Assembly: GCA_963924565.1 (NCBI GenBank) | Contig: OZ004610.1 | Location: 5,952,001 to 6,016,000 of the forward strand | Length of the DNA stretch: 64,000 bases | Direction of reading: 5' to 3' | Source: Ascidiella aspersa | Lineage: Eukaryota | In this document: positions 26,407-64,000 of the stretch, piece after piece | How positions within the stretch are numbered: position 1 is the stretch's first letter | How the letters are laid out: each line of letters starts with the position of its first letter | Notes under the pieces: generated by a model | What the model was told of the DNA's origin: nothing | The model's database searches: none | Seen by the model: only the letters and a program-made list of their open reading frames with translations | Made by a program: the position numbers and the translations under genes

Positions 26407-27638
26407 ATGTTGTTTAATATGAATGGCTGGAATTATGTTGCTCTATTCGCCGGACTTTTCGTCTGGTGGAAAATCAGGCAAAGAAAGCGCGTTAAAGGAA
26501 TAAGTGGCAGACATGTGTTCGTCACAGGCAAGTTATGTTTACATGTGGTAAAATGTGATATACATATGTTGTATATATATATATGAATTTATACATTTAT
26601 ACGATGATTATTTGGAAAATCCTTATACTGTAGTGCTTAACCATTTACTACCGTTCTGCAGGTTGTGACACCGGATTTGGAAGAAATCTGGCTGAGAGTC
26701 TTGACAAAATGGTGAGAACCTGACAACGCATTCCACTTTATATGTATTTATAGTTCACCCGTGCTTAAATCAAACGTAAATTACGGCTTCGCTGGATCGT
26801 ATACGCAATTATATTCGTGTATATTATGTTAAAGCTGTATGTATGCACATATCTGTCTGAGAAAGTATGAAGTGACGTAAATAGTGTCAGTAAAACTGAC
26901 TAGCCTAATTGTTCTTTAAAATCGCTCCATAAGTTTATCAATTGGTTTACACCCGGGTGCTTTTTGTGTGTATAAGAAATATTTTTGGTTCTTTAAAGCA
27001 AGGGTATTGAATAAATGTTGCCATGACAAAATGATCGTCCCCCATAGGGTAAGATTTTAAACGGTCGTTGTTGTAAATAATTTTTTCTATGTGTCGCCGA
27101 CTGATCGGGACAAGGTCCCTAAAGTAGCTGCAAAGTGCAAACGATAACGATTGACTTTACGGTTCCGAGCAAGACCTTTATTTGAACAGTACGACAATCA
27201 GTGTAAGTCAAACACACATGCCAAAGTGCTCGCATTAGGCCACAGCTTGTCTCTAACAAGAAGATTACAAACTGTCTTAAAATGCGTGTGATTCTCCTGG
27301 TATTCACCCGACAATTAAAGACAAAGTTACCACACAATACAAAACCATTAAAATCGCACACAAAGGTATCACACAGCGCTGAGAAAGCCGAGGCTGCAAA
27401 AGCCACACAAGTCTTATCCTCACGGAAACCGAGTACGCGGTTAACCGATCGGAACGGCTATTTCCGCGGACAAACGCTCTAGTTCGGCACAAAAGGGCTA
27501 GAATGATAATTGAATTTGAGACACTCTGTGTATTTTTTCATGCCAATCTTTGTCAAAATGAATTATGTTTCACTATGTAGGCGATCTATACTTTCTTGTT
27601 TATTTAAAAAAAAACTCTTTTGTTTTTTACTGATTTTT

Positions 27639-27686
<48 letters not shown>

Positions 27687-30600
27687 TTCGGCAATGTAAT
27701 AAAAACATGCAAATAATTTAAAGAAATACCGGTATACCCCCCAAAAAAAATCGCTCGCTTCGATCGCCAGGTGCGCCTTGACTTAAAAAGGGTTAACAAA
27801 CACTGAGCTATAAATTTAAATGTTATCGCGTTCTCTCAAAGTAGTTTTATTATACTTTTCATTAGTAGTATGGATGACGAACGTGTGAAGTCAAATTTCA
27901 AACCAAACAAACGTTTTATTTTCACGCTTTGCGTTGACACTTTACTGCCTCTGTAAATTAAATTAAACACGTTTGCAAAAAATATCCGAGCTCATTCGAA
28001 ATTATTATCATTTTGTGCGGCCCGCAAGACCTTTCTGAGTTTGGTTTTGGCCCGCGACTAAAAAAAGGTTGCCGACCCCTGTTTTAGACTTTGTAAATCA
28101 TGTTGAGGAACACTACATCTCATATGTTTTTATTACATAATACTCTGTATACGCTTTTACTTTTGTAAAAGGGGTTCTTAAACTGGGGAACTTCGCGCAT
28201 AGGCTAGCTTTTGGTGGTGCACAAAGGTCAAACTAAAACATTTGTGTAAAATTTGAATTGTTGAATGAATTTTTTGGAGAAAGGCAATTAGCATAAAACA
28301 CCATCAGCAATTTCTCCTTGGATGTATTTCGAATGGATTTATGTTTTATCTTTGCGCAAGAGTTCGCTCTAAAACAGCTAGTTTAAGTCTACTTTTTTTG
28401 TGACGTCCTCTCCGAACAATTTCCCGCCTACCCTGGCCCAAGCAAACCAAATTTTTTAGCGCTCTGCTGTAAATAATGCTTAAGATTCCTGCTTTACCAG
28501 GGTGTCTTCGTATATGCGGGATGCTTAAAGAAAGAATCTGTGGAAGAGCTGGAAAGAAATTGCAGCACCAAGTTAAAAGCAATTCAGGTTGACATCACCA
28601 AAACGGAAGATGTAATCAGAGCGGTCGCCATCGTTCAAAAGGACCTTGCCGAGAAATCTGATACTGGTATAATTCAATAAGAAAATTAAAGATTGATTGG
28701 ATAAATAAAATTACGTGAAAGCCTTTTTACCACGCCGCTTTGCTATAGATTGTTTAAATATCCTTAGTGGACAGTGGCTTTGCTATTTGCAATATAGCTC
28801 GATTATAGTTTCAAGAGGCGATAGCGCTATTTATAATATAGCGCCAATTACCAAGTTAATATTTGCCTGCTACCCAATTCTTAACCGCACCTGATTCTCC
28901 TTCTGGATGTTTCTTTATAAACTGTTTGCTAACGTCGTTAGTATTTTAGTTTTACGGGTCGCTCAAAAAAAAACATTTTAGACTATAATTTTCTGCAAGT
29001 GTTCCGATCACTTCCGTTTTTTGCAAAGGTGACCGTCACCTCCGGAATTTTTTGCAAAAGTGTTCCGATCACTTCAATTCATATATAACTTAATTATAAC
29101 ATTAATCATACGATAAGTAGCATTACTGCTATCATTGTCAAACATAAAACTGCACAACCACACGGTCTGATGCGTTATTTATTTACAAAATAATTATGCA
29201 TTGTTTCACAGAAAAATGCTTACATTTACAAGTGGAAACCTGCATTTTTAAACTTCGTTAAAATAAACGAGCAATTGAATTTCGTTTAATTCTACTTTTC
29301 GTTAAAATGCTTTATCATTCAGTAGTGCAGTAGTGATATTATGGACGTTCTTTCATTTAGAGCTGTGGGCTATCGTCAACAACGCCGGCATTACCGCTCC
29401 TCTTTATGCGTTCGAATGGCACAATAAGCAAGATTACCGGCAAGTGTTTGAAGTCAACCTGTTCGGGACTGTTGACGTCACTCTTAAGTTTTTACCCCTT
29501 CTAAAGAAAGGCGGCGAAGGTGATTAAGCAATACGATTTTTATTAAACATCTATACAATTCTCGATACGATTCGTCATTAAACTTCTATACGATTCTCCA
29601 TACGATTCTTGATTAAACTTACCCCTTTATTTCGACTTTTGAAAATTTGCAGTCGTTGTTTGTATTGACAGGTCGAATCGTGAACGTTGGAAGCATAACT
29701 GGAAGATTCGCTGCACTCGGTGTTCCGTACATTGCATCCAAATTTGCAGTCGAAGGATTTTCCGACGGCCTGATGTACGATAAGAAACAAGAACTGCCAT
29801 TAGACACGAACCCGCGTAAAATATAGTAGCCAAAACATTACACCTGGAACAAGTTTGACCAATGCTTTTTAGCATATAAAACGCACAAGACGCAACGTTT
29901 TACAATATATGTGCTTGTTGACTGTCGAACAAGCACAAATGTTCGACGTTTACTTTGAGTATATCCAAAATAACCACAAATGGTAAAAAAGATCTAAAAC
30001 AACTTCATTAAAAGACCGAATACTGTAGTTACGCCCAAAAACGGTATCGTCAGTTATGCGAAAATTTACAAACACAAACAAAAAACAAAAAAGCTTTACA
30101 TATTAAAATACAAATATTCAAAACCAAAATGTTTCTACATTTAGCTTTTTTGTATGTTTTGGTGTTTGCAGTTTTTAGCAGACTTTATGATGCGGTTTTT
30201 GGCGGAACTGCAGTGTTCTTTCATTGAATAAAGTTGTTTTAGATCTTTTTCGATCCTTTGGGTTCTATGACATGGATAAAAGATGGCAATGTTGGAAGAC
30301 CAATATTAGCGTTATTATTTCTTCACCTTTATTCTGAGTAGTTTGATTCAAATGATTACAGATTTAACCGCATCGACTCGTTATTCCGATTATTTCGTTC
30401 AAGCAAAACCGAACTTTGATTGAAGCTCATTAATGTTTTTTTGCTGTTTAAGGTTCGAACTCCGTCCGTTCAACATCTCTACTCACGTGATCGAGCCATC
30501 ATTCTTTAGAACAGGTTTAACAAACGTGACGCAACAAATCGAAGGCATTAAGAAGCGCTTTAAGGAACAAAGTGACGAAATTAAGAAAAGCTACGGAGAG

Positions 30601-32016
30601 AGCTACTTGACGGCCAGTAAGGTGTAATGATAAACACACGGACGACCAATAATGTGTGCCCGAGATTTTGGCTTTGTTTGGAGTGAAGTTAGGTCAAGTG
30701 TAAATTTTTTTATTGCAAACTAAAACGGTGCTTATAATCCAATAAAATATTGCTGTGAAACTGTAAAAAACGCGATAAAACCGTAAGAAAGGCAACTATT
30801 TATTTGTAAAGCATTTTTAAAATAAAAATCGAAATATACAATTTAGATATTATTTTGTAAGTTTTAAAATAGATCCCTTCTTCAAATATTAACAGTTATA
30901 CACTTTTTTCTAAGGCAATGTGATCTGAAATTATTCTAATGGCTATAAATATTGTTTTTATTAGTATTTTTGAGTTTGCTTGTTGCGGCTAGATTTCCGT
31001 TATTTTCCAAAAGCATTCCGCTTTGTTTTATTGAAGTTACTTTCAAGTCATAAATGACGTTAAAACTTAAAAAAAGCATTTTTTTAGAGTAATTTTTTTG
31101 GCTACAACTACTGCTTAAAACGTACAGCAAGATATATATTAAGTTGTTTTGGTATAACAATTAAAATATAAATATTTTTTACCATTTTTTTTTAAATATA
31201 AATCGCATTATGTGTAAGTTGTAACCCATTATTCGTATATATGAATGACGTAAAACTATAGAAGTCATTTGGTCCGCCAAACGTTGGTAAAATCAAATAA
31301 TTTAAAAATATTAAACTATTAGAACTATAAGTCAAAATGACTCTAGAAGCCCGCCAAGAAAAATGAGCAAGAAACCCTTTTAAAAGCACTGTATTTTTGG
31401 TAGAATGTCAAGGTATCGAAAAATCGATGGGTGAATTGGCTTCACCCGATCTCCAACAAGTGACGGACGCTATCGTCCATGCTTTATTTTCTGCTCAGCC
31501 TAATGATCGCTATGTAGTTGGAGTCGACGCGAGATTTATTCTTCGCCCACTTTCGTTCTTTCCCACGAGTTTTCAGGTTATTTGCATTGTTAAAATACGT
31601 TTTATAATCACTTAAATTACACTAACTATAACAAAAGGTTGAATAAAGATCAAAACACAAAGGGTATCCTTACACAGGTGTTAACAGATATGCATATTTG
31701 AAAATACGTAGCCTATACTATCTGGTAGCTAAAACTAAAGTTGTATACAAAGAATTTATGAACAAAAAAGCGTATATTGTGATACAACCAAATATGTACA
31801 CATGTAAGGAATAGCGTCCTGTACAAATTACAGTAATGTTTAACTAGAATAGTTAGCAGTCCATATGTGATACAAGCGATTAACTTACTTTATAATATAC
31901 GCAAAAAGACTCATTGTCAAATTACTTTTTTACAGGAATGGGGAATGCGCCAATTTCGCAAGTTAACGAAACTGCCAATGCCGCATCCAGAGCAAGCAGT
32001 GCGTTCTCCCAACTGA
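26407..32016 (+). CDS. SDR9C-family short-chain dehydrogenase (retinol dehydrogenase / 17beta-HSD6 / DHRS9-like), paralog 1, 8 exons, ~338 aa
   Basis: Exons 26407-26527 (GC donor), 26662-26711, 28501-28666, 29361-29519, 29672-29774, 30453-30616, 31404-31576, 31936-32016. Motifs: VTGCDTGFG, LWAIVNNAG, GRIVNVGS, YIASK (YxxxK), VIEPSFFRT, RYVVGVDA. Confidence 0.92.
27336..27483 (+). mobile_element. Short Helitron-like element (3' end)
   Basis: Ends CGG-CTATTT-CCG hairpin, ~12 nt, CTAG|T. Homologous to the inverted copy at 32798-32912. Confidence 0.55.
27641..27688. repeat. (TA)n microsatellite abutting a poly-T tract
   Basis: About 14 TA units followed by about 20 T. Confidence 0.95.
29960..30300. 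mobile_element. ORF-less fold-back derivative of the same Penelope pseudo-LTR family (two degenerate inverted arms)
   Basis: Minus arm carries CTGACGA...GTAA-CTACAG-TA-TTC (30018-30059). Plus arm carries a degenerate hammerhead (30177-30220), GAATAAAGTTGTTTTAGATC and a tail ATGGATAAAAGAT..GCAATGTTGGA resembling 21036-21068. Confidence 0.7.
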
Positions 32017-33754: not shown

Positions 33755-34970
33755 ATGTCGCATAATACGGTCGTTTATGTCTCATATACGGGCGCGGGCG
33801 GCTGTAGATCGCATATTATACGGACGGTGATGTCGCACATACGGGCGTTCGCACAATGTCGCATATACGGACGAATTTGTCTAACGAACATACTGTGTGG
33901 TGTAAGACGTCCGAATGGCGTTCGAACATATTTGAGTGGTAATCATAAAGCATTTGTGTTGCCTGATAGTTATGACGTCATTTTATGATTTCATCATGAC
34001 GTAATACTGTGTAGCAAATCTCCCCTATTTGGCTGACTAGCTATTGGCAGTAGTAGGTATCATACAGGGTTGCCATTGGCTCTTTTGACGCCAGATTCTT
34101 CAAATTTGGCTCTTTTTGAACATGGTTGGTGTCAAAAAATTCTGTTGGCTTTTTGTTTTTTTCTGGCTTTTTTGTACTAGTAAAAATTGCATAAACAGGT
34201 CTCATTTTTTGTTCTAAAATATTCGTTTTAAGATCTGCCCTACCTTGCCTGATTTTTAAAATCATAAATCGTTCTGAAAGGTCTCCACTCTCCAGGCCAC
34301 AGTGTTTCTTAATCAATGCCAGTCGGTCGCCGACGCCAACCCGTTGGATTTGGTTGGTTCGGGTTTAGATTTTGAAAAGAAATTACAAGCAATACAAACC
34401 ATATTGCTAATACTTTAAGCCTAAATTTGAATTGTTACGTAAAGTATTGGTCGCTTAAACAGTTCATAAATATTATATTTACACCCTAAAGATCGTAGAA
34501 TAACTTTTCCGAAAAAAAAAAACGAAAAAACATTTTGGTTGGTATGTTGTGAACATGTTATGATTGTCATGTTGCTATATCACACAAGGTTGAACCTTAA
34601 AGGTTATTTGTCATCATACAATTCAACTTATAGTATTATTTATAGCCTTTGATGTGTTTTAAATTTGTAGTATTAATGTTTGGCCTTTTCTGGCTTTTTT
34701 TCATTTGCGGTTTGGCTTTTTTTTCCAAAATTTAATCTGGCAACCCTGACCTCATATATACGGGCGTTCGCATATTGTCACATATGCGGGCGAATTTGTC
34801 TCACTAGTATACGAAAGAGGTCCATGGTTTCATAATGGAACTGGTACAAATGTTAGTGGACCAGTATATTGTATTATTTTGTGTTGTATGACAGTTATGA
34901 CGCCCTACCATGTCATCATCGTGACATCACACTAATCAAGTGGTGTAGTAAATTACCCATATTTGACCAT
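33755..34970. repeat. Region of GTCGCATATACGG-like motifs, with two degenerate direct copies separated by a MITE
   Basis: ATACGGGCGTTCGCA.A.TGTC.CATAT.CGG.CGAATTTGTCT at about 33839-33882 and 34757-34801, each followed by TTATGACG...TCATCA...TGTAG.AAAT..CCC.TATTTG. Confidence 0.7.
34065..34748. mobile_element. MITE with CAGGGTTGCCA terminal inverted repeats
   Basis: CAGGGTTGCCA at 34065 and TGGCAACCCTG ending at 34748; internal TGGCTTTTT repeats. Confidence 0.75.
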
Positions 34971-35487
34971 GCACAGTGAAGAGGCTGAATGTGGAAACCG
35001 ATATGATTGGTGTTTGAACTTTCAAAGCAATCGTATTGGAATCATAAACAGCTGCATAAAACCCCCGTTGTTTTTGCAGACAGAAACTGAGCGAAAATTG
35101 GAATATTTATTAACGTCATAATCTCTTACGCCTTTTTTTTAAAAACACCAATGCGAAAAGTCAAATAACGTCGTCCGGATTCCCGGGAATTTTTTTTTTT
35201 AATCTCGTTTCTCGGGAGTGAAAAATCCAGGAAAAAGAGGAACCCTAGTTAGGGTGCTGGTTAGGTGTTGGCTAGGTTAAGCAATAAATTTATAAAAATA
35301 ATATTTTACCCAACCCAAATAATATTAGAGCTATAGAAACCTCGGACGAAAGTGTGGTAGGATTCTAGACCAGCGCCGGAATACATTAACATTATAACTG
35401 AATTGTACATAAAAAATAATAACTTTGCAGGGACCTTATTGGTTTACCACAAATTTTGTGAAATATAACGAAAGGATCTTTGTCACA

Positions 35488-38400
35488 ATGGATGACATGG
35501 AACAATACTTATTAATATCATCATCTGATGTCAGTGAAGAATCTGAATCTTCATCAATAGTTTCAAATAGTTCCTCATCTAGTTCAACCAGCGAGTATAA
35601 CAAAAGGTTGTAATACCAGGTTAATGATACAAAGGGAAGTTGCTTAACAATAATATGCTATGTTTTCAGGTTGAACTTTGTTAGTGTGACCTTTGGCCTT
35701 GTTTGTTATCCTAAGCAAACACAATTTCTATCTAAAAACGTTATTATCCCCCCCAAGAGGAAATACATTTAAAATTGTTTTATAGAAGGCTTATGTAATA
35801 GTTACAAGATAAATATTTGTTGTTTATTAACCCTTTGTTTAGAATTACATTTACTCACACAGGTTTGAAATACCACAATTTTTTTGATTTTTTTAGTCTT
35901 TGGAATTAGTTACCCAGGAATTAATGGAGGCAGGCTTTAATAGGAATTCCACTACCAGTTATACTCTAAATTACATTAATGGAAATCTAATTAGAAATAC
36001 ATCCTGCTCAGTGCTTTATAACCTTAACCACCAGCTTTTCTATCTTAAAAACGATGGTTAAAAAACCCTGATAAAAATGTGCGCCTAAATGTTTTGAATC
36101 CCAGTGTACCTAAATTTGGGCAGAAATAAACAAATATTAACTTAATATTCCTTTTTTGTTTAAGTGTATTAAAGAAATGTGTATTTTACAGATTCTCAAA
36201 ACTTCTTACAGGTTTTGCTTTGATCTGCTCTTCTAATTTTAAAATATATTGTGTCCATTGATTAAAAAGAATATTACATATAATTTAGATACATGCTTTT
36301 TATTGCTATAGTAAATTTCCCATCTCATGGTAATTATTGCAAATGCCAAGAAAGTAAAATAATACTTTTTGAACTTACTTTTTTATTGATAATCTTTTAA
36401 AATTGAAAAGGCACTTTTATTGAATATCAATATGCTATCAGTAACTACCACATATGGAAAGAAAAAACCTTCTTTTATCAACTATACGAGAAACGTTTTA
36501 AAAGTTCTAGCAACTTAGTTTTGTTTCTCAGTTTTAATTGCCATTTGGTAGTGAAGTAATCATTTCAGCCTTAAAAACTTAAAATATAGTTGAGTAAAGA
36601 AAAAAGTTATAATGATATTTTCACATCAAAACAGAAAAAGGTTCTTTTCACATCAAAACAGAAAAAAGTTAATGAAGAAAAGAAAGCATCATGATTCCAC
36701 CAGTCGATCTATGGAAAGGTAGTTTTTATCGTTATAGAATATGTTGAACAAAACATTGTAATAGGTATTAATTAAGTTTAAACAAATTTCAATGTAAATT
36801 AAATATTTCAAATATATTGTTAAAATGAATAACAATACTTTTTTATTTTTAAAACTTAAAATTCATTTTTTTCAGAAAACTACTCAGAAACTAACTATGC
36901 TTATTTTAACAATGTTTTTCAGAAAAAAAATTAATGAAAAGATTGAATATGAAAGGTATAATACTTTGCTTTTTAAACAAGTTCTCCATTTATAGCTTGT
37001 ATTGTTTATTGACACTTTTTAGGCATTGCTGCCTAACAACAAATATGAGTTTATTTTTTAGCTAAATTATATTTCTTATGGTTTTTGTTCAGTGTAGTTT
37101 ATAAATTAAACCGTATTAATTCTCAATGGTTTCTAACAGGCACTGCCATTGCTGGGAATGTCAAAACAGGTAAAAAACATAGTATATTTATTTAAGAAAA
37201 TGTTTGGCTTTAATCTTAGTTATATTGCTTTTGGTTTAATGGTTTGTATTTTTTAAATTTAACTGATTTTATTATATTTTGTATTCCTTATTTTATGGTC
37301 ATATTTATCTTCAAGATGCTTTCAATGCTGCAAGTGCAAAAAACGGTAGGAAATTAATTAATTAAAATGTATATTTACTAAGGGTAATGATTAGAAAATT
37401 ACACATTATCAGTACTATTAAATTGAACTGTTGTTGAAAAATAAAAGAACATATGAAGCAGAAAGTGAAATGTATGAGACTAGTTTTAATTTTATTTGAA
37501 ATTTAGAATGCCTAATCCTAAATCTTGTATCAGTTTCTGAAATATTGTATCAGTATTAATGTTGTATCAGAACGAAATTATTTGGTTTATGTGAACTTTG
37601 CAATACTACATTTCTTTAAAGAAAATGTTTAATGCTGTGTATAGTAGCTTTCATGTTTTTTTTGTAGTTCATCAAGCGAGCATAAAATCACCAACAGACA
37701 AAAGAAGTAGGTGTTTATTTGTTTTAGCTTAACTTACTAGCACGTGTAAACATATCATTTTTTTGAAATGCAGAAATTGTTTTGGAGTTAATTATTATTT
37801 TTTTCATTTTTGAAGCGTAACATATAACAAAAACATTTAGTATTTACTGTCCGATAAATTTTACATTTAAGGGTTTATCGCTGTGCCCTTTTCTTGTAAA
37901 ATTTGTTCTTAAATAGTAAAAGAAAACTTTGTTGGGTGTCTAGTTCCAGACGTAATGTAAGGATTTGTCCTCTTCCGGAATGTGGAAAGTCTTTTGTGAA
38001 TGTCACCAACCACCGCCGTCACCACCCTGATGTTCCAAAGGAAGTATTTATGTATGATAACATGGCAAAGGAAAAAGGGTTGGGCAAGTACAGATCATAT
38101 CGTGGATACAAATGTTGCTATTGTGGAATTGTAGTAAAGTTTATAGTTGAACATTGTAAATTGAAACATGGCAAGGAAGCTGATGTTATCAATTGCAGAT
38201 TTTCTTATTTAAAGAAAAGGTGTAATTTGAAATCTAAAAAATTAAAACAAATGATTCAAAAGTGGCACAGAAGATTACAACCAGCAAAAGAAAAGCAGAA
38301 CTATTTTGTAAACGAAAAAAATAGGCGAAACCTTAAAAATCTACCAAAACCACACAGAGCGATAATCGAATACGAAGACAAATACGGTACTGACATCAGT

Positions 38401-41400
38401 TTCATACGAAAAAAGAGCATGGGTGCAATTGAAAAAAAGGAATTGGAGACTTTGTATGGTAACATTTTTGTCCGAATCATTTTTCGCCTGGGTTGCAGAG
38501 ATGGCGTTTTACTTGGCATGAAAAGAAATGAATACAGGTCGGCAGAACTAACTGAACAGGGAAATTATTCCATTTTGGTCGGTGAGCATACGGAGATGAA
38601 TCTACATGGATGCATTGTGGTGTCGAAAACGGAATATAAAGATATAGGGGCAACCTCGGACCACGCTTATGCGTTTAACAATCATAAACCTGGAGAAAGC
38701 TCCTACATGTTCCCTTCACTTTCTCGTGATGACGCAAAGCTGGAGGACTCAACGTTTTGTAAGTATTTTAAGAAAGAGGCACGGAAAGCGATGGGAATGG
38801 AAGTTTCCCCAACAGAGGTCCGAAAATTGATAACCACAAAAGTGTGCAAACTACCTGTTGAACTTCAAAATGCTATAACAACAGCTGATGGACACTCTAT
38901 TGAAACAGCACTCAAAGTTTGCAATGTAACACACCCCATGAAAGCTGTTGAAGCAGATAGGTTCGCCCCTACGAAAGCTGCTGGTGAGTAAAAGTGTTGT
39001 TTGTTTTGTTTCTTGATCGTTTTGGTTCTAAACCTGTGGTGCTTTCTATTTAGAGGCTGAAAGAGAATCTGACAAAGACAGACCAATTGATACTACAGGT
39101 GAAAAATCCAGAAGTAAGTTGTTAGTTTATTTCAGTTTTCTGGTGTGAAAATTTTAAGATGTGGTTTAAAGGTTAAAATAATGTTTCTTGTAGGCACATT
39201 TTGAATATAAATGTTTTTTGTGTTGTACTTTGCTCTGCTTTATATTTTGTGTAAGAATTAGTTTTCTGATTTTTTGATTTAGATGCTGAATTGCTGCAAC
39301 AATCGTTGAGTCCACCTTTACTGTCAGATTCAGAGGGTAAGTGTCATTTACGCTTAACTAATATTTTATCTTTTTAAATGTATATGGTGTTAAACAAATT
39401 TAAAAGCTTCTCAGGTTTGACCATGTCTAATACTCTTTTATTTTATAAAAAAATATTATAAATTATTGCAAAACAGGGGTTTTGCATGGAGCTTATTTCA
39501 AAATAGTTTTTGTTTTAATAGTTAATTTACGGTTTCTGACAATGATGGGGCAACAACAGTAGATGTTCTTTTGTGACTTTTTTTTGTCTTGCCTTACATG
39601 TTTGCATTTCTACTGCAATTTATGTTCTACTTTGTAAATAGTTTTCCTTATAAAGGTATATTTTTTGACCATATATTTCAGCATCAAATGACGAAGATGA
39701 TACATCCATGGACATTAGCTTCACTCGAGGTATATATTATTTTATCATTTTACCGTTTCTTGTAATGCAAATTCTAGCATTGGGTTTAATGTACTAATAC
39801 ATTGAACCTAATTTTATGTGACAGTCTTGACCAGGGGCATGTCCATTGTCCATATACCTAAAAATTGGGTTCCCGAATTTTTGTCTGACAGAAGTTCAGA
39901 GAAAATTCTACCGTTGAAGCAGGGCCAAACAAAAAACGAAAGAAAGCATTTTGCTTTTGGTTTCGCATTATTTTAAATGCTTGTCAATTTCATAGGTGTC
40001 GAACTTTCAAAATTCTAGGGCGTTATTTTCAACGTGCTCAATTATTAATTACAAAATGTGAGCCGAAGTTTTTAACACTTTTGGTGAACTAAAACTGTGC
40101 TACAGGAAATAATTTTGCACATTTATTGATAACTTGGGTTAAATTCCAGGCATTTCGACGCCTTGTTAGAAATTCAGTGCGTCTAAAAACGCATGGCACA
40201 CCCACGTTCGGCGCCTATGCTCAATTTCATAAAAACATTGTCATTTTGGACAGTGAATTGAACACTGACAAAAAAAACGGTGAATTGAACACTGACAAAA
40301 GAAATATAAAACGGACACCAAAACCCTTGGATACACTACTGCTCTTGACTGACACATTTTTGGTCATGACATTTTTATTTCGATACATACCATTGAATCT
40401 ATGTCTGTTAACATCTGAGTTTTTAGCAGGAAATACCTCAACAATAATAGAAGCTAAGAAGTTAAAGAAAGCAGAGCAGGAAATACCTCAACAATAATAG
40501 AAGCTAAGAAGTTAAAGAAAGCAGGAGGTAACACAACATTATTAATCCTTAAGGTTTTGTTTTAGAATAAAATAACATAATTTAGAAGTTGCTCTCAGTG
40601 TGTATGCTGTCAAATTATTATAGTTAACTAGTTAACAACGATTTATTTTAACTGCTTTTGGCATACATAGTAAGGGGGAATGTGTTACTTATTATCATCA
40701 ATTTTTTCTGACGTTGAAACCTTGTAGTCTATTTAGATATCATTATGATTTTGATTTTTGACATACAATTTTTTTTTTATAATTTATAAACCAGATCATT
40801 TCGTAAAAGTCAAGTTTGCGGAAGATGATCTAGAAAAATTGATTTTCAACCCGCAATCAATTAAACTTAATGATATCACTTGTACCTCCTTCTCTGACCT
40901 ATTTGTTGGAGATATCATCAAAGCAGAATGTAACGACAACTTTTATCAGGCTCAAATCATTGACCCAGGTGTGAGAGTAGTTTTGCAAGGAAATTAAAAT
41001 AATGACTTTTGGTAAAAACAGCATTCTGTGTCCTGGTAATAAATTGCTTAATTGTAAGCTTTGCCGCGCGAGCCTATCGGTGTTTCCGAATTTTTTTTCA
41101 TGTAGTCAGGCCTATAAAATGGCCCTTGTTTCCCCCGTGCAACCACTGTTTCACTATTGTTGTGCACTTAGCCATCAAAAAAAATAATAAAACGATTTGC
41201 GCCCCAAGCAAAAGCCCACAAGTCACAGCCGTTTCCTCAAAGAAACCCTTTTTTAACAAATAACTTAAAATGTTGTTAGCACTGATAAAAAACAATCGTC
41301 ATATTTGTAAAGTCATTTTTGGAAGCTTATGTGCACTTAGTCATCAAAAAAATAATAATAAAACCCATTACCCCCTGAGAGTAAGACCACAAGTCACAGC

Positions 41401-42259
41401 CGTTTTTCAAAGCCACCAATTTTTAACACATAACTCAAAATGTTGTCAGGACGGATAAAAAACAATCGTGATATTTGTGAAAGCGATAATTTAATCAGCG
41501 GATGTTGTCGTTAATTGACGTCTCCGGCATTAAGCGATGTACATCTAAAATGCGCTTCGGAAAACTTAATCGCCTTCGCTAATGCACAAATTTACATGTT
41601 CTCAGTTTTCTACCTTTATTTTACTCGGTAATAATATCTCCCTGTTACGCCAATCTACTACCAGATAAGGCAGCGGTTTCCCAACTTTTTCAAAAATTTT
41701 GCCTGGTTAACCCGTTGCAATTATTTTGATATTTCGCGGCCCTATAAAAATCCAAGGGTACCCATATTTCTTGTGGTGCACTAGTGCAGTCGCAATTCTT
41801 TCTAATGTAACAACTTTCAATCGATTAATGCGAACGATTTGCTGATAGCGGGTGGTACAGCATAACAGATGCTTTATGATGTCCCAAGATACACCATGAC
41901 ACATATATAAGGTTTAAAAACATTGGCTCTATCCTAATGTTAAAATCTTACAGGCTAATTCTCCTTGCGGCCCCTCTGAAACTACTCTGCGGACCCCAGT
42001 TTTGGAACCGCTGAGATAAGTCATACGAGGACTGCTATACCTTACATCGCCAAATAAATGGCGCAAAATGTTTTCATGCCAAGTTTTACGCACTAAATGT
42101 ATGTGGGCAAATATTTCGTGGAAGTATAGTTCAGATTAAATTAAGTTTTTTTTTGATAAACCAAAATCGTTGGTAGAAAATAAACCTTTTATTTACACCG
42201 TTTGTTCGCTTAATTTACTTTTTATTTATTGTATATCTACAGACACAAAAGTACGGTAG
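35488..42259 (+). CDS. Multi-exon tyrosine-recombinase-domain gene (C2H2 zinc fingers + YR + Tudor-like module), ~580 aa; Crypton-like element gene, probably inactive or decaying
   Basis: Exons 35488-35606, 36662-36718, 36923-36955, 37140-37169, 37316-37345, 37668-37706, 37944-38983, 39054-39113, 39283-39336, 39682-39729, 40480-40527, 40795-40968, 42243-42259 join in one open frame. Internal microexons all have lengths divisible by 3 and AG/GT borders. Confidence 0.6.
37944..38983 (+). mobile_element. Tyrosine recombinase (phage-integrase fold) exon with two N-terminal C2H2-like fingers
   Basis: CPLPECGKSFVNVTNHRRHH and CCYCGIVVKFIVEHCKLKH. YR-like order: GCRDGVLLGM (R), ILVGEH, YMFPS, SPTEVRK, ADGHSIETALKVC (Cys at the expected Tyr position). 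Confidence 0.75.
40425..40524. repeat. Perfect 50-bp tandem duplication
   Basis: AGCAGGAAATACCTCAACAATAATAGAAGCTAAGAAGTTAAAGAAAGCAG twice. Confidence 0.95.
41161..41480. repeat. Degenerate tandem duplication (~170-bp unit)
   Basis: TGTGCACTTAG.CATCAAAAAAA...CCACAAGTCACAGCCGTTT...GATAAAAAACAATCGT.ATATTTGT twice. Confidence 0.8.
41671..42013. mobile_element. hAT-type MITE, same family as 21315-21737
   Basis: TIR CAGCGGTT / AACCGCTG; TSD AGATAAGG / AGATAAGT; shared internal sequence (TTTGATATTTCGCGGCCCTATAAAAA, CACTAGTGCAGTC). Confidence 0.85.
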
Positions 42260-43414
42260 CTCACCATTCTGATACGAAATTAGCTACTCCCCTTACACCC
42301 AAACCCAAGAAGAAGCTGTTCTAACATTTTTTTGTTCTTGTTTGTATGCCTATTATGCTTTCATGTTCTACGAAATTTCAAATGTATCTTTTTGTCCTTT
42401 TTCATAATAAATTTCTTCAGACCCATGACGTATTATTTACGAATTGTTTTCAAAAAACGGCAATGTGCTTTTTTAAAAAAAAATAAAGCTATGATGCTTT
42501 GCTTTGATTGGCTACAAAAACATGTGGACAGTTATCGAATCAGAGATCGATGAATTTTAATATTCGGAGCACACAGTGCAATTAAAAGATCAAAACAAAC
42601 ATGCCCGCCTATCCTGTTTCGACGTCCTTCATATATTTAACACTAAAAAATAAAACTACTCGCAAAGGAAAAACGCAAGCACACAAGACAGATTTTACAA
42701 GGGTCAACATTAAGGTGATTGTCGCTATACTGACAGTTCTTTCTACTTGACTTTATTTATTCGTTCTTTACTAACTTGTATGGATAGTTTTAGGTAAAAA
42801 AAAATGATTCGGTTGTGCTTTTAGTACGTATAACCATTTAATAGAACTGTTTTATACCGTGACTGGATCTGTAGTACTATCAGCCTTACAAAAGTTAACC
42901 TTAAAAAAATCGGTCTTTTTGACCGTAAAGCAAATTCCAACTCCCCCCGATTAAAACTGCCTTAAACGATAGCCTTCTGTTGTGCTATAGTTTTAAGAAC
43001 AATTGCTGCAGTGACTGGTAACAGTTAGTTACTAGCTAGTTCATAATTTTTCAACAATTCATTAAATTCGATGACTGACAACTTGACGGAAGCAGAAAGC
43101 GGAAATAATTCCAAACGACTGTTAACTATCAACAAAACAAAACTGCAAAAATGTGTTGTGGATGCTGTGCAATAGGTTGCGGAAAGTGTACAATTTGTGT
43201 GAAAGTTGAATATGTGGATTGCGCTATGAGCGCTGCAAATATTTTTTTGTTGTATGCGTTTGGATAGCTGCTTGTGGTCAATGTTACAAGCAGCATAATA
43301 AAAAGGCTGTTTGATCTTTAAGTTATTTGAAAATAAAAGTTTTTCAAATCAATTTCAATGTTCAGTAGAAAGAGAGTGGCCCAAATAATAGATAAAAGAT
43401 TCATTCTTTTATTA

Positions 43415-44141: not shown

Positions 44142-44480
44142 CAGGGGTTCTTAAACTTTTTTGACCGCGGACCCCTAAATTTTTTTTTGGCTTCGCGTGG
44201 ACCACGATAGGCAAAAAATTTCAAAAAATGACGTCAAAAATTGACGTCACATTACAAATAAACTTCATAAATCTGTTGATTTCGTTCTAAAAACTGATAA
44301 AGTGAAATGAAGTTTTAATACAGTCAGTGCAAAACCGTTTGGTTTTTAACTAAACTGCTTTCTTTGAAAAATGATTACTTTTTAAATATACACTAATGTT
44401 TCAATTTGTCTTTCATGGACCCCCTAAAACTAATTCACGGACCCCCAAGGGTTCCATGGACCCCAGTTTAAGAACCCCTG
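44142..44480. mobile_element. hAT-type MITE
   Basis: 16-bp TIR CAGGGGTTCTTAAACT; perfect TSD TTATAGCC. A one-ended copy in opposite orientation lies at about 12855-12963. Confidence 0.88.
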
Positions 44481-48088: not shown

Positions 48089-51000
48089 ATGTTAGTCTGG
48101 TCTTTTGTTGTGTTGTTCGTCGGATTCATTTCTTGGTGGAAACTTCGATCAAGAAAACACATTCAAAATGTTACTGAAAGGCATGTTTTTATAACAGGCA
48201 AGTGCAGCAATTTTTCTAAACCGTACAACGAAATTTTTGATTCTTGGCTTACTTCCAAACTGGATGGCAGCGCGGCGTCATCGTGATTTCTGGTTAAACA
48301 GAATTTACTTTCAAATAAATAGTTAAACTTTAAATGCAAATTATTATTTTTTCTCAATTATGCTTTTTGTATTTTGAACACATATTCCATATAGCCTTCG
48401 TGACATCCCTGTAATGGTGCTACAAAAACCCTAAATGTATTTTATATTGTTTGGTCGTGTTTATCTTCTAATCGTGACCCACATTCACTTAACACGGGTT
48501 AAATACCCAAACCATTTTAATTGAAAAACGTTTCAAAACAATAACGTTAAGGAAAAGAAAAAAATATAGTTTAAAGTCAAAAGTTGTGATGTGACAAAAA
48601 ATTATTTGTTATAGGTTTTGGAAATTACATTTTTACTAATTTTGCTGCATAATAAGGATTTTTAGGTTTAAAACAGCTTCTCTAAAATTTTGTTTTGAAG
48701 CATTGTGAACATAAGTGGCAAAAGCTATACTTCACAATGCGTCTTTATAGCCTGTTATAAGAAATCGTGTCAACATAAATGCACCCCGTCTCTTAAAGCA
48801 ATTTGTTGACATAAAAGGGGCGAATATGGGTGCCGTTCAAAAAAAAATAAATAAAACGCCCCATAGACGAAGGCCTTTGTTGCCCGACCAAATATTTTTA
48901 TGTTTTTTATCCCTTAAACAAAGTTACGGAAAATATTACTGCTCAGATCCTATTATGTCTGAATAAAATTTTGTTTAATTTGTAAATAAAAGCCCGCCTA
49001 ATCCATATTTCACGGCCTGGTTAGTTTATGTCCTTTATACTTAGACCTTAATGATAAATAATTACTAGGTATTTTTGGTAGGATGTGATACCGGGTTTGG
49101 AAGATTGCTGGCAAAACGACTGGACGAAATGGTACGAAAATAATTACGCTTACCAAATAATTCTGTTGTATAGAACTATTTTTGTAAATCAAGAAATCTA
49201 TTTTTGTTTTGAACGTTTAGAACAAAATCTTTATTCATTTTTAACATCGTTCAAAATGATACCTACTTCTGTATGGGTTTTGATATTCTTATCACGTCTT
49301 ACAACAACCTGCAACCATTATGCTCCAAAGTATTTTCGTTACATTTTTATTTTTATCAATCCGAAATATTTACAAATTAACATAATTTTCAAAGAATTAT
49401 CACAATATTTATTTACCAAAAATGCACCTTTAAAATGACATACATGCATTCACGTGAAATAAAACATAGTAATGAACAATATTGTCTCAATAGGGAGTGT
49501 TCGTATACGCCGGGTGTTACAGTAAGAATTCAGTAGAAGAACTACAAGAGAGTTGCAGCACAAGGTTAAAAGCCATTCAGCTTGACATCACTGACACAGA
49601 AGACATAATCAGAGCGGCGAACTTCGTTGAAAATGACCTCGCTGAAAAATCGAAGAATGGTGAGTCAATAAAATGTTTTTATTAAAATTAAATTAACTCG
49701 CAGGTCATTTATTGAAAGTTTATGTGCAAAGTGTTCTATAAAAGTATTTCAATAAACCATTACGAATTATACAAAAACTGTTTTATACAAAACTCAAATT
49801 TATTAGCAAATTTACACATGATAGTTTCTAGAAGACCATTGCAACTTACATCCTTAATTTGAACTTTACGGGACGTTTTTTTGTTTATTTATTTTCTATC
49901 CTAATTTAAAATTACAAAAAAAAAATATTTTTATCGTGAATAAAACATTAGTAAATGAGACCAACTATTAGGTTGTAAGTACCGATTAAAATTACTTTAT
50001 TTCACGTTAATGAGTTTCAACGCTCTTGGCGAATCGAGTCATTTTGCGTTCGCTATTCAAACGTTTACCCTTTTTTCGGAGTTTTTCTGCACGTTTATTT
50101 TTTATTTAGCGGCTCTGTGGGCAATCGTTAACAACGCCGGTATCGCAATCCCCGCATACCCGTTCGAGTGGCACAATAAACAGGACTACCAGAAAGTTTT
50201 CGAAGTCAACCTGTTTGGAACTGTCGACGTCACTCTAAAGTTTGTACCTCTGCTCAAAAGAGGCCGCGAAGGTTTGTGACGAAAATCGAAGAATTTCTAA
50301 GATTTTGCGGGCGCTAAACCAGTCATATACTGAATATATTTCGCCAGCAAAGGCAACGTCAGTATATCGTATTCAAAGTAGCCTATATCTTGATTCTATT
50401 TGAACAAAATATACCTGAATTGCTAGCTTTGCTGGACTCCTCTGCTGTTACTGATCAGGAATTAAGGTCGACATTTATCTTGCAAGGGTCGAGGTGATTT
50501 CTAATACCACATATTCAGTACAATTCTAAAACAGTACTTTAAACTTTTGACACTTGCGTATCTGAAAATACAAAAAATATATATTACGCACCAATAAACG
50601 AGTAGCCAGAATTTCGAAGGCACTATTCGTTGTTGAAACAACTGGAGTTACTGAAACAACTGAACAGCTTGTCCTGTAAGGACCTTAACCTACTAAAGCA
50701 TGAGGTTAAGTTCGCGCGAAACGCGAACTCTAAGCATTTAAAAGTGGTAAAATAATATAGTGTTTAACTGACAACTAAAAATACCTTTTTGGTGAACCGA
50801 CAGAACTGCATTGTATTAGTCGCTTTGTGTGTCTAGTCAATAAGTACCTACCTGATAACTACAGTTTATTGGGGACATTATGGCCATCCGAAACAAGTTG
50901 GTGAAATTAAAAGAAAAATAGTCCTACCTTTTTTTGCTAGAAAAGACTCGTTGTGACGATTTTATGAAGCCAACATTTCCTTTCGCTATTCTGAAGTATA

Positions 51001-54000
51001 GGAATTGTTGCACAGGCATAAATACAGCTGCTTTAATATCATTCCAGTTTCAGTTTGATTTAATCACTAATATTTTCCAGGACGAATCGTAAACCTTAGT
51101 AGCATCAGCGGACGAATCGCAGCTCTAGGCATCCCATACATGGCGTCCAAGTTTGCCGTCGAGGGGTTTGCTGACGGACTAACGTAATACAGCAAACATT
51201 TTTACTATTACGAATTATGCTTACGTTAGATTTAACTTTTTGCAAATCTATAACAGGTTCGAACTTCGTCCGTTTAACATCACAACGCACGTTATCGAAC
51301 CGTCGTTCTTCAAAACAAATCTCACCAACATTAACCAACAAATCGCAGGTATCAAGAAGCGATTTGAGGAACAAAACGACGAGATGAAACAAAGCTACGG
51401 GGAAAGCTACTTGGTTACAAGTGAGATTTATAACATTTCTCTAAACAGGTAATACTAATTTACGGAATAATGAATGGTCGGAACGCTCACTAATTTAAGT
51501 GTTACCCCGTTAAAACAATTATTAAACCAACGCACAATATTTGGGTTAGGGTGGGGGTTAGCGTTTGGGTGAAGGTGGGTCAAGTGTTATTATATTTAAT
51601 AATAATACTGTGAGCGTTCCGACCGTTCCGACCATTCATCATTCCGTAAATTAGTGTTACCCCTCTAAACCAGTGTTTCTCAACTTTTGGTCGCGGCGAC
51701 CCAAAAATTATAGCGTAAGTATTTCCTTCAGTGAACTTTTTTTTATCCATCAAAATATTAAACATTGTCACTTAATTATTACAAATTTAATTCTTATGGG
51801 CCTTTTCTTTGTATTGCTTGCGGAATATTGTCAATTTCAGGAAATGTAGAACTAATCTCAACGAATCTTAGCATGTGAACTATTAATCGGCAAACCAATT
51901 TTGGGTCGACACCCATAGGCTGAAAAATACTGCTCTAACCAAAAACGAAAATGCAACATCATAACTTAACAGTAAAATATTTAGGGTATATACCGCATTG
52001 GTCAAAATAAGCACAAATGTCGTACCTTTCTTATGACTGAAGTCAAGACTCGAAAATCTACACTATTTTTCAAGGTGTGCCGCATCACATTGGCGCGACT
52101 CGATAGGTTCTCAATGGTTAACGAAATGACTTTCGGGTTTCCAAAATAGACATACCAGTATGCGTATATACAATAGCCATGAGGAAACACATGTATAGTA
52201 ACTATTGCCTTACTGTATTGAAACAGTTTTTAAAGTAAAGAACAAAAAACTTAAATTAGTTTTTTGTAAACAATTTGTCCATTTTTTTACTATGCTGCAA
52301 GCTAAAAAAAATAATTTTTTTTTTAAAAACACTGCTTAAACCGATTAATGTTTTCGTGTAAATTTAAATGTTAAGTTCGTTTAAATAAAGTTTACTTGTC
52401 TTGATGACATTGGCCATCATTAAGTTTTCGAACAAACACATGTTTTTTTTCCTTTTTCTTCATCCCAATATGCTTCATTTGGTGCAGAAATAAAAGGAGT
52501 CAAAACAATGTTGAGTGATATGGCGTCACCGAATCTCCAGCAGGTTGTGGACGCCATTGTTCATGCTCTATTTGCTGTTCACCCTAAGGAGCGCTATGCA
52601 GTTGGCGCGGATGCAAAATTTCTGTTGCTGCCGTTGTCGTTTTTGCCTACAGGTTATCAGGTTCGTGTGGTACTTTGCTAAACTAACTTGAAACATATAT
52701 AAACTTGTATTCGTTTGTACCTATAGTATAGCGTCCAGTACTATATAGGTAAATTATTCCGATACTGATTCCTGGTATGTTGGGCAGAAACTACCGCAAT
52801 CCGATTCGAAGCCAAATGATGCCATCAATATGATCAAATAAGCAAATTTAATCACATTGGTACATGAAAAACATGCTTTTTTATTTATTTTCGATTTTTA
52901 ATCTAATATTTTTTGCTAAATTTACCTCAATGTAGATAAATGTACTTTGGAACACAAAGCATAGCTAAAATGCAAAACTTAATTTAGTATCGGGCTGCAC
53001 CGATATACTACCACCGGGTATCTGCCACGATCCAACATAAACAAACATCCCTTTTGTTAGCTGAGATTAGTCTCTTGAAGTGGCGCTGTTAAACGATAAC
53101 GGACCCGTATGACTAGAAGGACTGTTCTACGGACAAAAATAAACTTAATACAGCTGTTTCCTTTTTTCAAGTCTTTTAGTTTGTCTGGACTTAAACAAAT
53201 TCAAATTTCCTGATTTTACGATGTGATACACAGTTTACCTAAAAATACAAACTAAGAGCGGAATGCGCCCTGGACGAGTTGCGATAATGCTATTTTCTAC
53301 TAGTCATTCGAGTCGTACCAGCATGTGTATAGCCTATAAGCAAAGCATTCCTGTCTATAAGTTCTCTACATAAGAGCTTTCCAAACTGAGGGTCGCTATC
53401 CTTATGTGTGTCGCGCAACTAGTTTTACGTAGCGAGTATATACGGGTCTCCAGCCATAAGACCGAAATAAAAACACCATCAACGTCGGAATAAAACACAG
53501 TTCGGAATAATAGGACTAATACATAATAGTAAACAACACTTTGCCTAACCCCAAACGGCACCCCTGCATACACTACTTATTCCCCTAATAATTTTAATCC
53601 TAACCCATTTTCTAACCCAACCCATTAACCAGCACCATTAACCCCAAACAGAAAAAATCTGGTGCCACAACAGCGGCGCCCTAGCGGCGTCGGACAAACT
53701 AGGGCGACCACGCAAACGTCGTCACCATAAACGGCCGAAGCCAGACCTACTTCCTCCAAACGAAAGTAGTTTTTACCTGTTTTTCTGCTTTAGGTATTGT
53801 TGCTTTTTAGGTCCTTATTGTGCATTCCCATTGATAACATTACACGGCGAGTGCAATACCCCAAATTCACAAATAACAAAATTTGGCACAGTGTTTTTGT
53901 AGGCCAAATCTCTTTTAATATTTTGGCTCTGTGATTTGTTTCATATTAACCTTACTTTCAGGAATGGATAATGCGCAAACTTCGGAGATTAATCAAAGCG

Positions 54001-54039
54001 CCCAACCCTCACCCCGAACAAGCCGTTCTACCTGCATAA
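48089..54039 (+). CDS. SDR9C-family short-chain dehydrogenase, paralog 2, 8 exons, ~334 aa
   Basis: Exons 48089-48197 (GC donor), 49082-49131, 49494-49659, 50110-50271, 51081-51183, 51257-51420, 52488-52660, 53962-54039. Motifs: ITGCDTGFG, LWAIVNNAG, YMASK. Same intron positions as paralog 1. Confidence 0.92.
51448..51662. mobile_element. Fold-back MITE with long TIRs and internal GGGTTAG-like repeats
   Basis: GGTAATACTAATTTACGGAATAATGAATGGTCGGAACG at the left end; its complement at about 51622-51662. The core TTGGGTTAGGG...GTTAGCGTTTGGGT is also seen at about 8365-8415. Confidence 0.7.
51671..51932. mobile_element. hAT-type MITE
   Basis: CAGTGTTTCTCAAC / GCTGAAAAATACTG termini; TSD CTCTAAAC / CTCTAACC. 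Confidence 0.65.
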
Positions 54040-62000: not shown

Positions 62001-63980
62001 TGGTATTTCGACAGCATAAAGAATAAAAATTAGAATAACAGGTATAGAGCTATAGTTACATATATATTTGAGGGATTCCTGTTTTTATACGGCAATATAT
62101 ATTTCTAAAAATTGAAAAAAAAATGTGCTTTATACCTGTTTTACTAAATGGTTTAAATATACTGTTACATCTTACTATTTCGCTCACTATCCTTATTACT
62201 ATTATTAATTTATTAATATTTGAACACAGTGGATACCGTCATGTTGCGGTGTCGTTTCTTCACCATTTTGGAAAGTTCGTTCATTGTGATGTTGATGTTG
62301 TTCTCCAGGTTCGCAAGTTCAGTCTAATACAAATTGCAAATTATATATGTCATTACCATGCCCGAACAATTAACATAGATAGAATTAAACAGTTAAAGGC
62401 AATTTGTTTAGGATTATTAGGCCAAACTTTGCCCTCGAGTTTAGAAGTGTGGTTACCTCCAGTTAACTTACTATGTTTTGATAAATTAAACATTCAAAGT
62501 AGAATTGCAAATCAAGACTAAAACGCACAAATTTTTTTTATTGGATCGGCACCGATAACGCCCTCAGTATCGGACGAGTACCGATACTTCCACTTGGCAT
62601 CGGGTATCGGCTCCCATCCAATATTATTTTGACATCCTTATATTTGTTAATATTAGTTGCCGAAACCTAATTTTAACTGTTTTTTTTACACTTATAAAAA
62701 TTATACACCTATAATTTTAGTTCTTTTTTACAGTTAGCTTTAAATTAAATTAAATAATAGTAATTCGTTAGTATATATTTATTGGTTTTCAACCTTAATA
62801 GACATCTAATGTGACTATAAAAACTCAAACTCAACTGTAATCGTCTAAGTAAACACGAGTATTGCACTCTCGCGAACTTTAAAAAAATGCGATAAGATTT
62901 AAAAAATAAAATAAACGCATGAATATAATAGCTTATTGTTTTTAATCACGAAACAGCAACTGCAAATATGTCATAATCAAACCTGAAGTGTGGCCAAGGA
63001 GCTTTGTGAAGACTCTACATCTTTAGAAACTTTTGCAAACTTGGTATTGGTGTTGTTGATAACGTTCTAAATAACATCAGTTCTTTAATGTCCCATCAAG
63101 AGTTACAACAGGTTTTATCAGTTTTTGCTTTCATAAAAAGGGTTAATAGTACACAAAATAATGAACTGCTCTCTACCAATGTCAAAAATGTGACCTGAAA
63201 AAATCTCGATAAAAAACCCACAAAAATACAACTGATTTATTTACGGGAAATTGTAAATTCAATATAATTAAATGTTGCACGACAACAGTTTGATAGTTAC
63301 AAAACTTTATTTACGGCCACTAAACGAAATGTATCTATTACGATTCGCCTTATTAATAACTGTGTGGCCCTAGACCTATATACTTCTCAGATATACCAGC
63401 ATTCAGTTTATCTCCTTTGGTCACGTAGTTTAAAACATTTCATTACAACATTACAACCAACGACTTGGATCACATAATACGTAAAGTCAGTGTACATATC
63501 GTTACGCAACGTTTCAGCGAAAAGTTTCTATACTAAGAATGAACCGTTCATGCAACATAACACATGCTTACGGAAATATTGGCGGCCGCCTCTTCACGAA
63601 ACTGAGACACGCCCTGCTTAAAATCTTCTAGGCTTCTTACGGCATTCTTCAAGGAAGCCTGTTAAAGTATTGGCTGTGTAAGGCGTTGGTGAAATATTTG
63701 AGGAAAAAATGGAGAATCGGACCGATGTAGAATATACGACAATACGTTTAATATAACATGCAACACCGGATGGCCTCGAAATAGCTTTCGGAAAGGTCAG
63801 AAGGGCGTTTTACAGAATACACGTTGACTAATATACGTGCAGTTACGTAAATGTAATAAAATATTTTCCAGAAAGCATTATGAATAGTATTACTGTGTTG
63901 TTGCGATGTCGTTGCTCCTGTACTTCGGACATGTCGCTCAGCGTGATGTTCGTGTTGTTTCCCAGCTCTTCGATTTTAGT
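59069..63980 (-). CDS. Partial gene (5' end outside window): N-glycosylated coiled-coil stalk protein built from phase-0 exons
   Basis: Exons 63980-63894, 63066-62983, 62323-62237, 61191-61108, 60757-60683, 60096-60016, 59514-59428, 59357-59283, 59155-59069 (75-87 nt, all AG/GT, all phase 0, open frame). Heptad-like sequence with many NxS/T sites. The 3' end is unresolved. Confidence 0.75.
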
Positions 63981-64000
63981 CTAATGCAGAAAGAACGAAA

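Follow-up and report, generated by a model that had tools for sequence, protein, structure and literature searches.

A spliced single-copy ascidian gene probably domesticated from a tyrosine recombinase

Gene structure and transcription

The window studied here is the whole 64-kb stretch of DNA G000:C4:5952001-6016000, taken from a 308.6-Mb animal genome (Ascidiella aspersa, contig OZ004610.1). At 35488-42259 on its forward strand lies a gene whose largest exon encodes a predicted derivative of a tyrosine recombinase (YR). The gene is real, spliced and expressed, with alternative use of a Tudor-like exon; it is single-copy and under purifying selection, its product is predicted to be catalytically dead, and it has probably been domesticated. 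A preliminary description of the locus, made from the letters alone, had proposed a chain of 13 exons spliced into one frame of ~580 aa, to be checked by reads across the predicted junctions. That chain was borne out at 582-583 aa: all 13 exons have AG/GT ends and share one open frame, in phase 2 before and phase 1 after a 1040-nt exon. The exons are as follows.

35488-35606, + strand: exon 1, coding part; acidic, Ser-rich start with a phase-2 donor; open frame and RNA read cover, putative donor placed by the X3 contig break 35577/35607
36635-36718, + strand: exon 2, basic and NLS-like; 84 nt from 36635 or 57 nt from 36662, both in frame; donor in 14 RNA reads
36923-36955, + strand: exon 3, 33 nt, phase 2; joints on both sides (14 and 16 reads)
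37140-37169, + strand: exon 4, 30 nt, Cys/His-rich; 16 and 18 reads
37316-37345, + strand: exon 5, 30 nt, Cys-rich; 18 and 4+14 reads; recognizable in the dead C9 paralogue (82% over 56 nt)
37668-37706, + strand: exon 6, 39 nt; reads on both sides
37944-38983, + strand: exon 7, 1040 nt; two zinc-finger-like motifs, linker helices and predicted YR catalytic-domain fold
39054-39113, + strand: exon 8, 60 nt, phase 1, charged linker; 6 reads, then 2 reads and a contig
39283-39336, + strand: exon 9, 54 nt; joints
39682-39729, + strand: exon 10, 48 nt, acidic; joints
40477-40527, + strand: exon 11, 51 nt; joints
40795-40968, + strand: exon 12, 174 nt, Tudor-like, alternatively spliced; family profile and X3 contig
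42243-42259, + strand: exon 13, coding part and stop codon; acceptor in 4 RNA reads and one contig

Splicing was followed with ~6% of RNA run X7 and with contigs of run X3, both mapped to 34800-43200. GT..AG joints were seen for 10 of the 12 introns among the best 15 of 52 joints, with 2-18 reads each: 36718>36923 (14 RNA reads), 36955>37140 (16 RNA reads), 37169>37316 (18 RNA reads), 37345>37668 (4+14), 37706>37944 (6), 38983>39054 (6), 39113>39283 (2 and a contig), 39336>39682 (6), 39729>40477 (2 and a contig) and, for intron 11, 40527>40795 (X3 contig only). The RNA joints lie on a single strand throughout, and none of the same 10 joints was present in DNA run X6. Skipping of exon 12 (joint 40527>42243) was found in 4 RNA reads and one contig; its inclusion was seen in the X3 contig only. 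No joint for introns 1 and 12, the latter including the exon 12 donor, was found among the same best 15 of 52.

The acceptor of exon 2 is probably 36635, giving 84 nt, still in frame, rather than the 57 nt proposed earlier; an X3 contig that ends at 36662 fits this upstream acceptor. A k-mer rule applied to X3 contig ends predicted the ends of three confirmed introns exactly, to the base, and for intron 1 it gave donor 35606 and acceptor 36635. With the 84-nt exon 2 the products would probably be 592 aa with exon 12 and 534 aa without it. Among the five upstream phase-2 exons proposed earlier, those of 33, 30, 30 and 39 nt stood and the 57-nt one is probably longer; downstream, the phase-1 exons of 60, 54 and 48 nt were confirmed, the 174-nt one was confirmed at its acceptor, and the second 48-nt exon became exon 11 with 51 nt. 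Under random lengths, the chance that 10 of 10 small internal exons are multiples of three is ~2e-5; the reads, and not this P value, are the test of the chain, because the exons had been picked to fit.

Two tandem duplications span splice acceptors. One of 27 nt (36618-36670) lies in front of exon 2 and is in frame; the other, a perfect 50-nt duplication (40425-40524) at exon 11 of the assembled haplotype, shifts the frame if its first acceptor (40427) is used, in which case the Tudor form would be cut off. Three DNA reads of X6 lack the 50-nt duplication. Duplications that take in an acceptor could be one way for small exons to lengthen or multiply. There is also a resemblance between exon 3 and exon 2 when the latter is read in a different frame.

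Protein family, fold and domains

A Pfam scan of the open reading frame (ORF) in exon 7 matched no YR family, and nothing at E <= 1; weak integrase SAM-like matches were obtained for one relative (E 0.0075). A full HMMER scan returned 25 relatives, the best 42% identical, and exon 7 is 39-42% identical to the intact ones. Of 10 relatives looked up, 5 have names, all uncharacterized proteins of Ciona intestinalis or Clavelina lepadiformis, and one further Ciona protein was added; every named relative is an ascidian protein. A word-index protein search with exon 7 yielded 0 of 920 candidates, and a search for longer forms 0 of 5628, which is weak evidence. When PDB sequences were searched with a profile built from the family alignment, the sole find was rejected as an expression-tag artefact.

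An alignment-based model was obtained for the intact relative P0002 (39% identical to exon 7) at pLDDT 80. Foldseek matched this model to XerD, XerA, Cre, XerH and lambda Int with probability ~1 at E 3e-3 and weaker, no PDB row reaching E <= 0.001, and to viral integrases at E down to 2e-4. Compared with XerH, it gave Z 12.2 over 277 residues (rmsd 5.8), and the integrase N-terminal domain 3nrw aligned to its residues 79-186. We call the family tyrosine recombinases because the top PDB and viral rows are uniformly YRs and because of the structural Z scores. Judged by this model, the parent family is a YR family with a core-binding and a catalytic fold, and the YR ancestry proposed for the gene is upheld through its relative.

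The family plan is a low-complexity start, two zinc-finger-like motifs, a core-binding domain, a catalytic domain, a linker and a Tudor-like domain. The catalytic-domain residues R-K-T-R-H-Y stand at the expected places; across the family, Thr stands in for His in HxxR (26 of 28 rows). The motif pair lies within exon 7:

37966-38169, + strand: two C-x2/4-C-x9-H-x3/4-H zinc-finger-like motifs; ligands conserved in the family, zinc binding predicted

The pairing agrees with the two C2H2 fingers of the preliminary description; the spacer has 9 residues and not the canonical 12.

Exon 12 encodes the C-terminal domain of the family (E 9e-13 to P0001). The Tudor-like end that had been proposed was supported by the family C-terminal profile, which matches the SMN Tudor at E 0.004. 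The sequences suggest a circularly permuted Tudor. The SMN match covers the second half of the domain only, corresponding to the first strands of the Tudor, and the first half resembles the remaining strands (40795-40968; P0001, P0003, P0005, P0017, P0021, L018:13383-13559).

The exon style extends beyond the gene. In a relative of another lineage, found at metagenome loci L017/L018, the YR exon likewise ends in a phase-1 donor. Behind it come predicted exons: three candidate symmetric ones (42, 39 and 54 nt), then a Tudor-like exon and another of 54 nt. We regard the style as ancestral because this relative shares both the donor and the symmetric exon pattern; the small symmetric exons are a trait of the parent family and not a special assembly device. 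A search with P0043 recovered four metagenome loci of this distant relative, at which no element ends were found: homology breaks sit in introns at other insertions. Scans with alignment A4 confirmed no locus among 588 candidates from metagenome contigs or among 600 candidate stretches from viral ones. Frameshifts interrupt the YR frames of L017, L018 and L019. A 208-bp near-perfect palindrome (L018:9194-9401) lies upstream of the YR exon and is absent from the 99% identical L019.

Losses in the present copy

Relative to its family, the gene carries three changes expected to inactivate it.

38920-38922, + strand: Cys codon for the predicted catalytic Tyr (nucleophile); family alignment, no variant listed, 4 covering runs
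38590-38592, + strand: Thr for the predicted catalytic Lys of the beta hairpin; family alignment, no variant listed, 4 runs
38226-38245, + strand: in-frame loss of ~93 core-binding-domain codons that relatives and the C9 paralogue retain

Tyr occupies its column in all 28 covering rows (40 aligned rows; 17 of 17 non-redundant relatives). The Lys column holds Lys in 26 of 27 covering rows and Arg in the other, with Lys in 15 of 15 non-redundant relatives. The deleted stretch corresponds to residues 80-172 of P0002. All three changes are fixed in four of four runs, and no insertion restoring the deletion was seen in them. Both Arg and the second His are kept (R288, R396 and H420 in 583-aa numbering), as are 37 of 46 family-conserved positions; the nine lost include Tyr, the Gln-Lys hairpin and four residues of a basic helix. 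The Tudor-like exon lacks the Trp kept in six of six aligned relatives. Read against these residues, the encoded protein is predicted to be catalytically dead. TA-directed hypermutation was rejected as the source of Tyr>Cys: exon 7 keeps 16 Tyr in 346 residues, and its TA observed/expected ratio is 0.63 vs 0.84 in the window.

Selection, copy number and history

Exon 7 carries 22 variants, 14 silent and 8 replacement, with no stop and no indel. Given the mutation types observed, ~6-6.6 silent changes would be expected (P 3e-4 to 7e-4), and pN/pS is 0.15-0.21. This excess of silent variants places the gene under purifying selection.

Over exon 7 the DNA depth is 4-9, where a single copy should give ~6.3 (1,936 Mb of reads on a 308.6-Mb genome), and the gene is single-copy. 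Three protein searches of the genome found only this locus, a wrecked paralogue on C9 and short remnants on C2, C3 and C7; the searches score best candidates only, and copy counts are lower bounds. With that limit, no further intact member was found. The sole YR paralogue (C9:7648464-7655299, approximate span) is collinear with the gene for several small exons and keeps the core-binding stretch and the Lys and Tyr codons. It is 65-69% identical to the gene (72/76/53% by codon position) and has 9 in-register stops and 9 frameshifting gaps; the present gene has none. Among the other remnants, C2 and C3 carry pieces of the Tudor exon and C7 a piece of the catalytic domain; with these the range is 65-78% identity. 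None of the remnants shares flanks with the locus, the gene has no convincing terminal repeats, and no empty-site joint was found among the best 15 of 52 joints. X2 and X3 contigs mapped at window 38923-38960 contain a diverged paralogue with a Tyr codon (C9 ~7651200-7651290); its X3 contig has low depth and is apparently spliced at the same donor. A broken C9-type copy may still be transcribed.

A 12-member near-identical cluster surrounds P0002, whose members may be alleles from several assemblies, and Ciona has several paralogues. Together with the dispersed intron-bearing remnants, these suggest that the parent family was mobile.

Probable function and alternatives

We consider it likely that the gene is a spliced, single-copy derivative of an ascidian YR, held by purifying selection and domesticated as a non-cutting nuclear protein; its zinc fingers and dead catalytic domain would contact DNA or chromatin, and the Tudor-like domain would be an optional tail. 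The preliminary description had offered an intron-rich YR element or a domesticated derivative. The polymorphism pattern favors the second; the first is contradicted by the replacement of Tyr and Lys, the deleted core-binding domain, the single copy and the failure to find ends, and it had been overlooked that the present copy is not an active element. The parent family would have been a low-copy, intron-carrying DNA transposon of Crypton-like type, one copy of which may have settled between two short-chain dehydrogenase (SDR) genes and then lost catalysis. The zinc fingers and the retained Arg-Arg-His surface could serve to bind DNA or partner proteins, a role also put forward for DUF3504 proteins. 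The symmetric small exons may encode relaxed linkers, the frame surviving when one is gained, duplicated or skipped. Reuse as a DNA-binding regulator is likely because natural variants show that selection persists.

Several observations weigh against this view. The core-binding loss removes the main DNA-recognition module. The YR fold was found in P0002, whereas the single-sequence model of the window protein itself was unusable (pLDDT 35), and catalytic roles were assigned by motif order and the fold of a relative, not by residue-level superposition. The variant set consists of 22 unpolarized sites from four runs of two studies, in contigs and partial reads. In small exons 1, 3 and 8, each of the five coding variants examined among those listed replaces a residue, and the assembled haplotype carries the potentially frameshifting duplication at exon 11. 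No orthologue was found in a second species, the best relative being 42% identical; run X5 (organism B), which holds short, near-identical pieces including introns, was not used as one. Within its clade, no end branch is as long as that of the gene (1.35 vs 0.38-1.16), which speaks for weaker or altered constraint; the tree uses 17 of 41 rows (24 covering <170 residues were dropped), has no outgroup and shows branch length only, and its join with P0001 is unstarred.

The strongest rival, which we hold to be unlikely, is a transposon copy that lost its activity recently, continues to be transcribed and spliced and has no host function, the silent excess being a leftover or a sampling effect. 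The long end branch, the replacement variants in linker exons, the frame-threatening duplication, the missing Tudor Trp, RNA reads covering introns and the decayed relatives in the same genome are all compatible with such a relic. Segregating variants of a single-copy gene, however, feel host selection only, yet these are 14:8 silent with no stop or indel; moreover, three separate inactivating changes were fixed while the frame remained open across 13 exons, and the core-binding deletion is itself in frame.

YRs work as oligomers, and the dead catalytic domain could be a host-kept inhibitor of its own element family, joining recombinase complexes or blocking element ends, and the kept Arg-Arg-His surface with the nucleophile lost would suit that role. 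Successful suppression would also leave no intact member, as observed in the assembly, but that absence is a lower bound (only best candidates were scored), without an intact partner nothing is left to select for an inhibitor, and the core-binding domain that recognizes ends is gone. We judge this decidedly unlikely. An active or mobilizable element, autonomous or with a partner supplying Tyr in trans as in Flp, is highly improbable: the gene is expressed, three predicted active-site residues are kept and relatives carry the full set, but Tyr, Lys and the core-binding domain are all gone from a single copy that shares no flanks with the C9, C2, C3 and C7 remnants, has no intact partner found, and shows no empty-site joint among the best 15 of 52.

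Domestication of an inactive YR is the reading that we carry forward. Beyond it, we tentatively propose, as possible but doubtful, that the parent family comprises uncatalogued DNA transposons of animals, rich in introns, with a recombinase that combines two zinc fingers and a Tudor-like reader in circular permutation. This group would stand closer to Starship captains than to Cryptons and would remain active in some ascidians; the locus would then be a young lineage-specific domestication after loss of catalysis and of the core-binding domain.

Genomic neighborhood

The gene lies between two tandem SDR paralogues on the same strand, both of which proved real, as had been described.

26428-32001, + strand: upstream neighbor, SDR paralogue A; context, outside the gene
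48098-54027, + strand: downstream neighbor, SDR paralogue B; context, outside the gene

High-copy dispersed MITE-like repeats, unrelated to the gene, lie around and inside it (34878-35250, 35308-35378, 40130-40220, 41671-42001, 44142-44480). A GIY-YIG endonuclease ORF (20033-20776, minus strand, Pfam E 1e-4) is enclosed by a perfect 249-bp inverted repeat (19662-19910 / 20780-21028); 19662-21028 resembles a young Penelope-like retroelement fragment. The window further holds EamA transporter exons (2304-5076, minus strand), thrombospondin-1 and CAP domain exons (17638-18746, plus strand) and duplicated coiled-coil-like exons near its right end (59900-64000).

Significance and comparison with known systems

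No description of this YR family was found in full-text literature, a search that leaves aside Repbase Reports, subscription papers and supplements; the Crypton sequences listed in the PMC3212892 supplements may be relevant to family membership. The event is of a known kind, YR domestication as in ZMYM and KCTD1, and the family and the locus appear to be new. For animals, nearly all known cases of recombinase domestication are ancient DUF3504 genes, in which the steps have been lost. Here comparison is possible between a dead gene, a decayed sister that still has the ancestral domains and intact relatives ~40% identical, which makes the order of losses and the new function testable, and ascidians are a tractable animal group for such comparisons. 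Pfam does not detect the parent family, which may represent an unlisted source of site-specific recombinases in eukaryotes.

The closest parallel is the DUF3504 group (ZMYM2/3/4, WOC, QRICH1, KCTD1, KIAA1958 and the tunicate BAB40645 group), described in passages of PMC3212892 as expressed, intron-containing host genes with a Tyr-less transposon-type YR domain, zinc fingers and a presumed regulatory role. Crypton-derived genes can lose the Tyr and yet persist (same passages, PMC3212892). Unlike in these genes, where they are partly lost according to those passages (PMC3212892), both Arg and the second His are kept here; no orthologue was found outside its own species, and the parent family has a C-terminal Tudor-like domain. 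PF12012/DUF3504 gave no match to the ORF at E <= 1 and was not among the best 25 of 44 families listed for 41 members, the other 19 being single weak matches. By these profile comparisons the gene falls outside the DUF3504 lineage.

Like Cryptons (A, F, I and S in the relevant parts of PMC3212892), this is a YR gene without reverse transcriptase (RT), in low copy and with decayed dispersed copies, and animal Cryptons are there said often to lack terminal repeats (PMC3212892). The sections of PMC3212892 on animal CryptonA/I present them without a C-terminal domain; this family differs in its Tudor-like end, zinc fingers and symmetric small-exon chain. No other Pfam-matching ORF >=100 aa and no RT or RNase H lies within or beside the gene, and there is no room for another ORF because of the transcript structure. 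Dispersed similar copies or non-autonomous derivatives, on the other hand, were not found among the best-scoring candidates: there is one intact locus, with remnants 65-78% identical. CryptonV, a group defined in Repbase Reports, is named in a portion of PMC8869645; no flanking microsatellite, its type of target, was found at the gene. Among language-model neighbors, which serve as leads only, the unnamed animal clusters scoring 0.92-0.95 might be the CryptonV group, and a cnidarian Myb-bearing cluster scored 0.87-0.93. Filing under Crypton is not established.

By language-model features the nearest Pfam-named YR clusters are Starship captains (DUF3435; window 0.87, P0037 0.90-0.91), which can carry zinc-finger and chromo domains and an altered HxxR (as part of PMC11162782 reports). 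The PF11917/DUF3435 HMM gave no match, and the resemblance is by features only, 134-135 of 256 being shared; captains are fungal, no cargo was seen at the locus, and no ends were found there or in the four metagenome loci. A DIRS/Ngaro/PAT retrotransposon was rejected (no RT or RNase H ORF at the locus, 12 spliceosomal introns), and a viral YR of VLF-1 or Polinton-like type is not supported: the neighbors are SDR genes, and no viral-contig locus was confirmed. VLF-1 is one of many equal fold matches, at 15% identity.

With Cre, XerA/D/H and lambda Int the family shares the core-binding and catalytic fold (Z 9-12). Some phage repressors, MrpR/YopR and SroF, use a YR fold without catalysis. All of these differ from the present family in being prokaryotic, at 10-14% identity, with no introns, zinc fingers or Tudor-like domain; the repressors nevertheless offer a functional analogy for a YR that does not cut.

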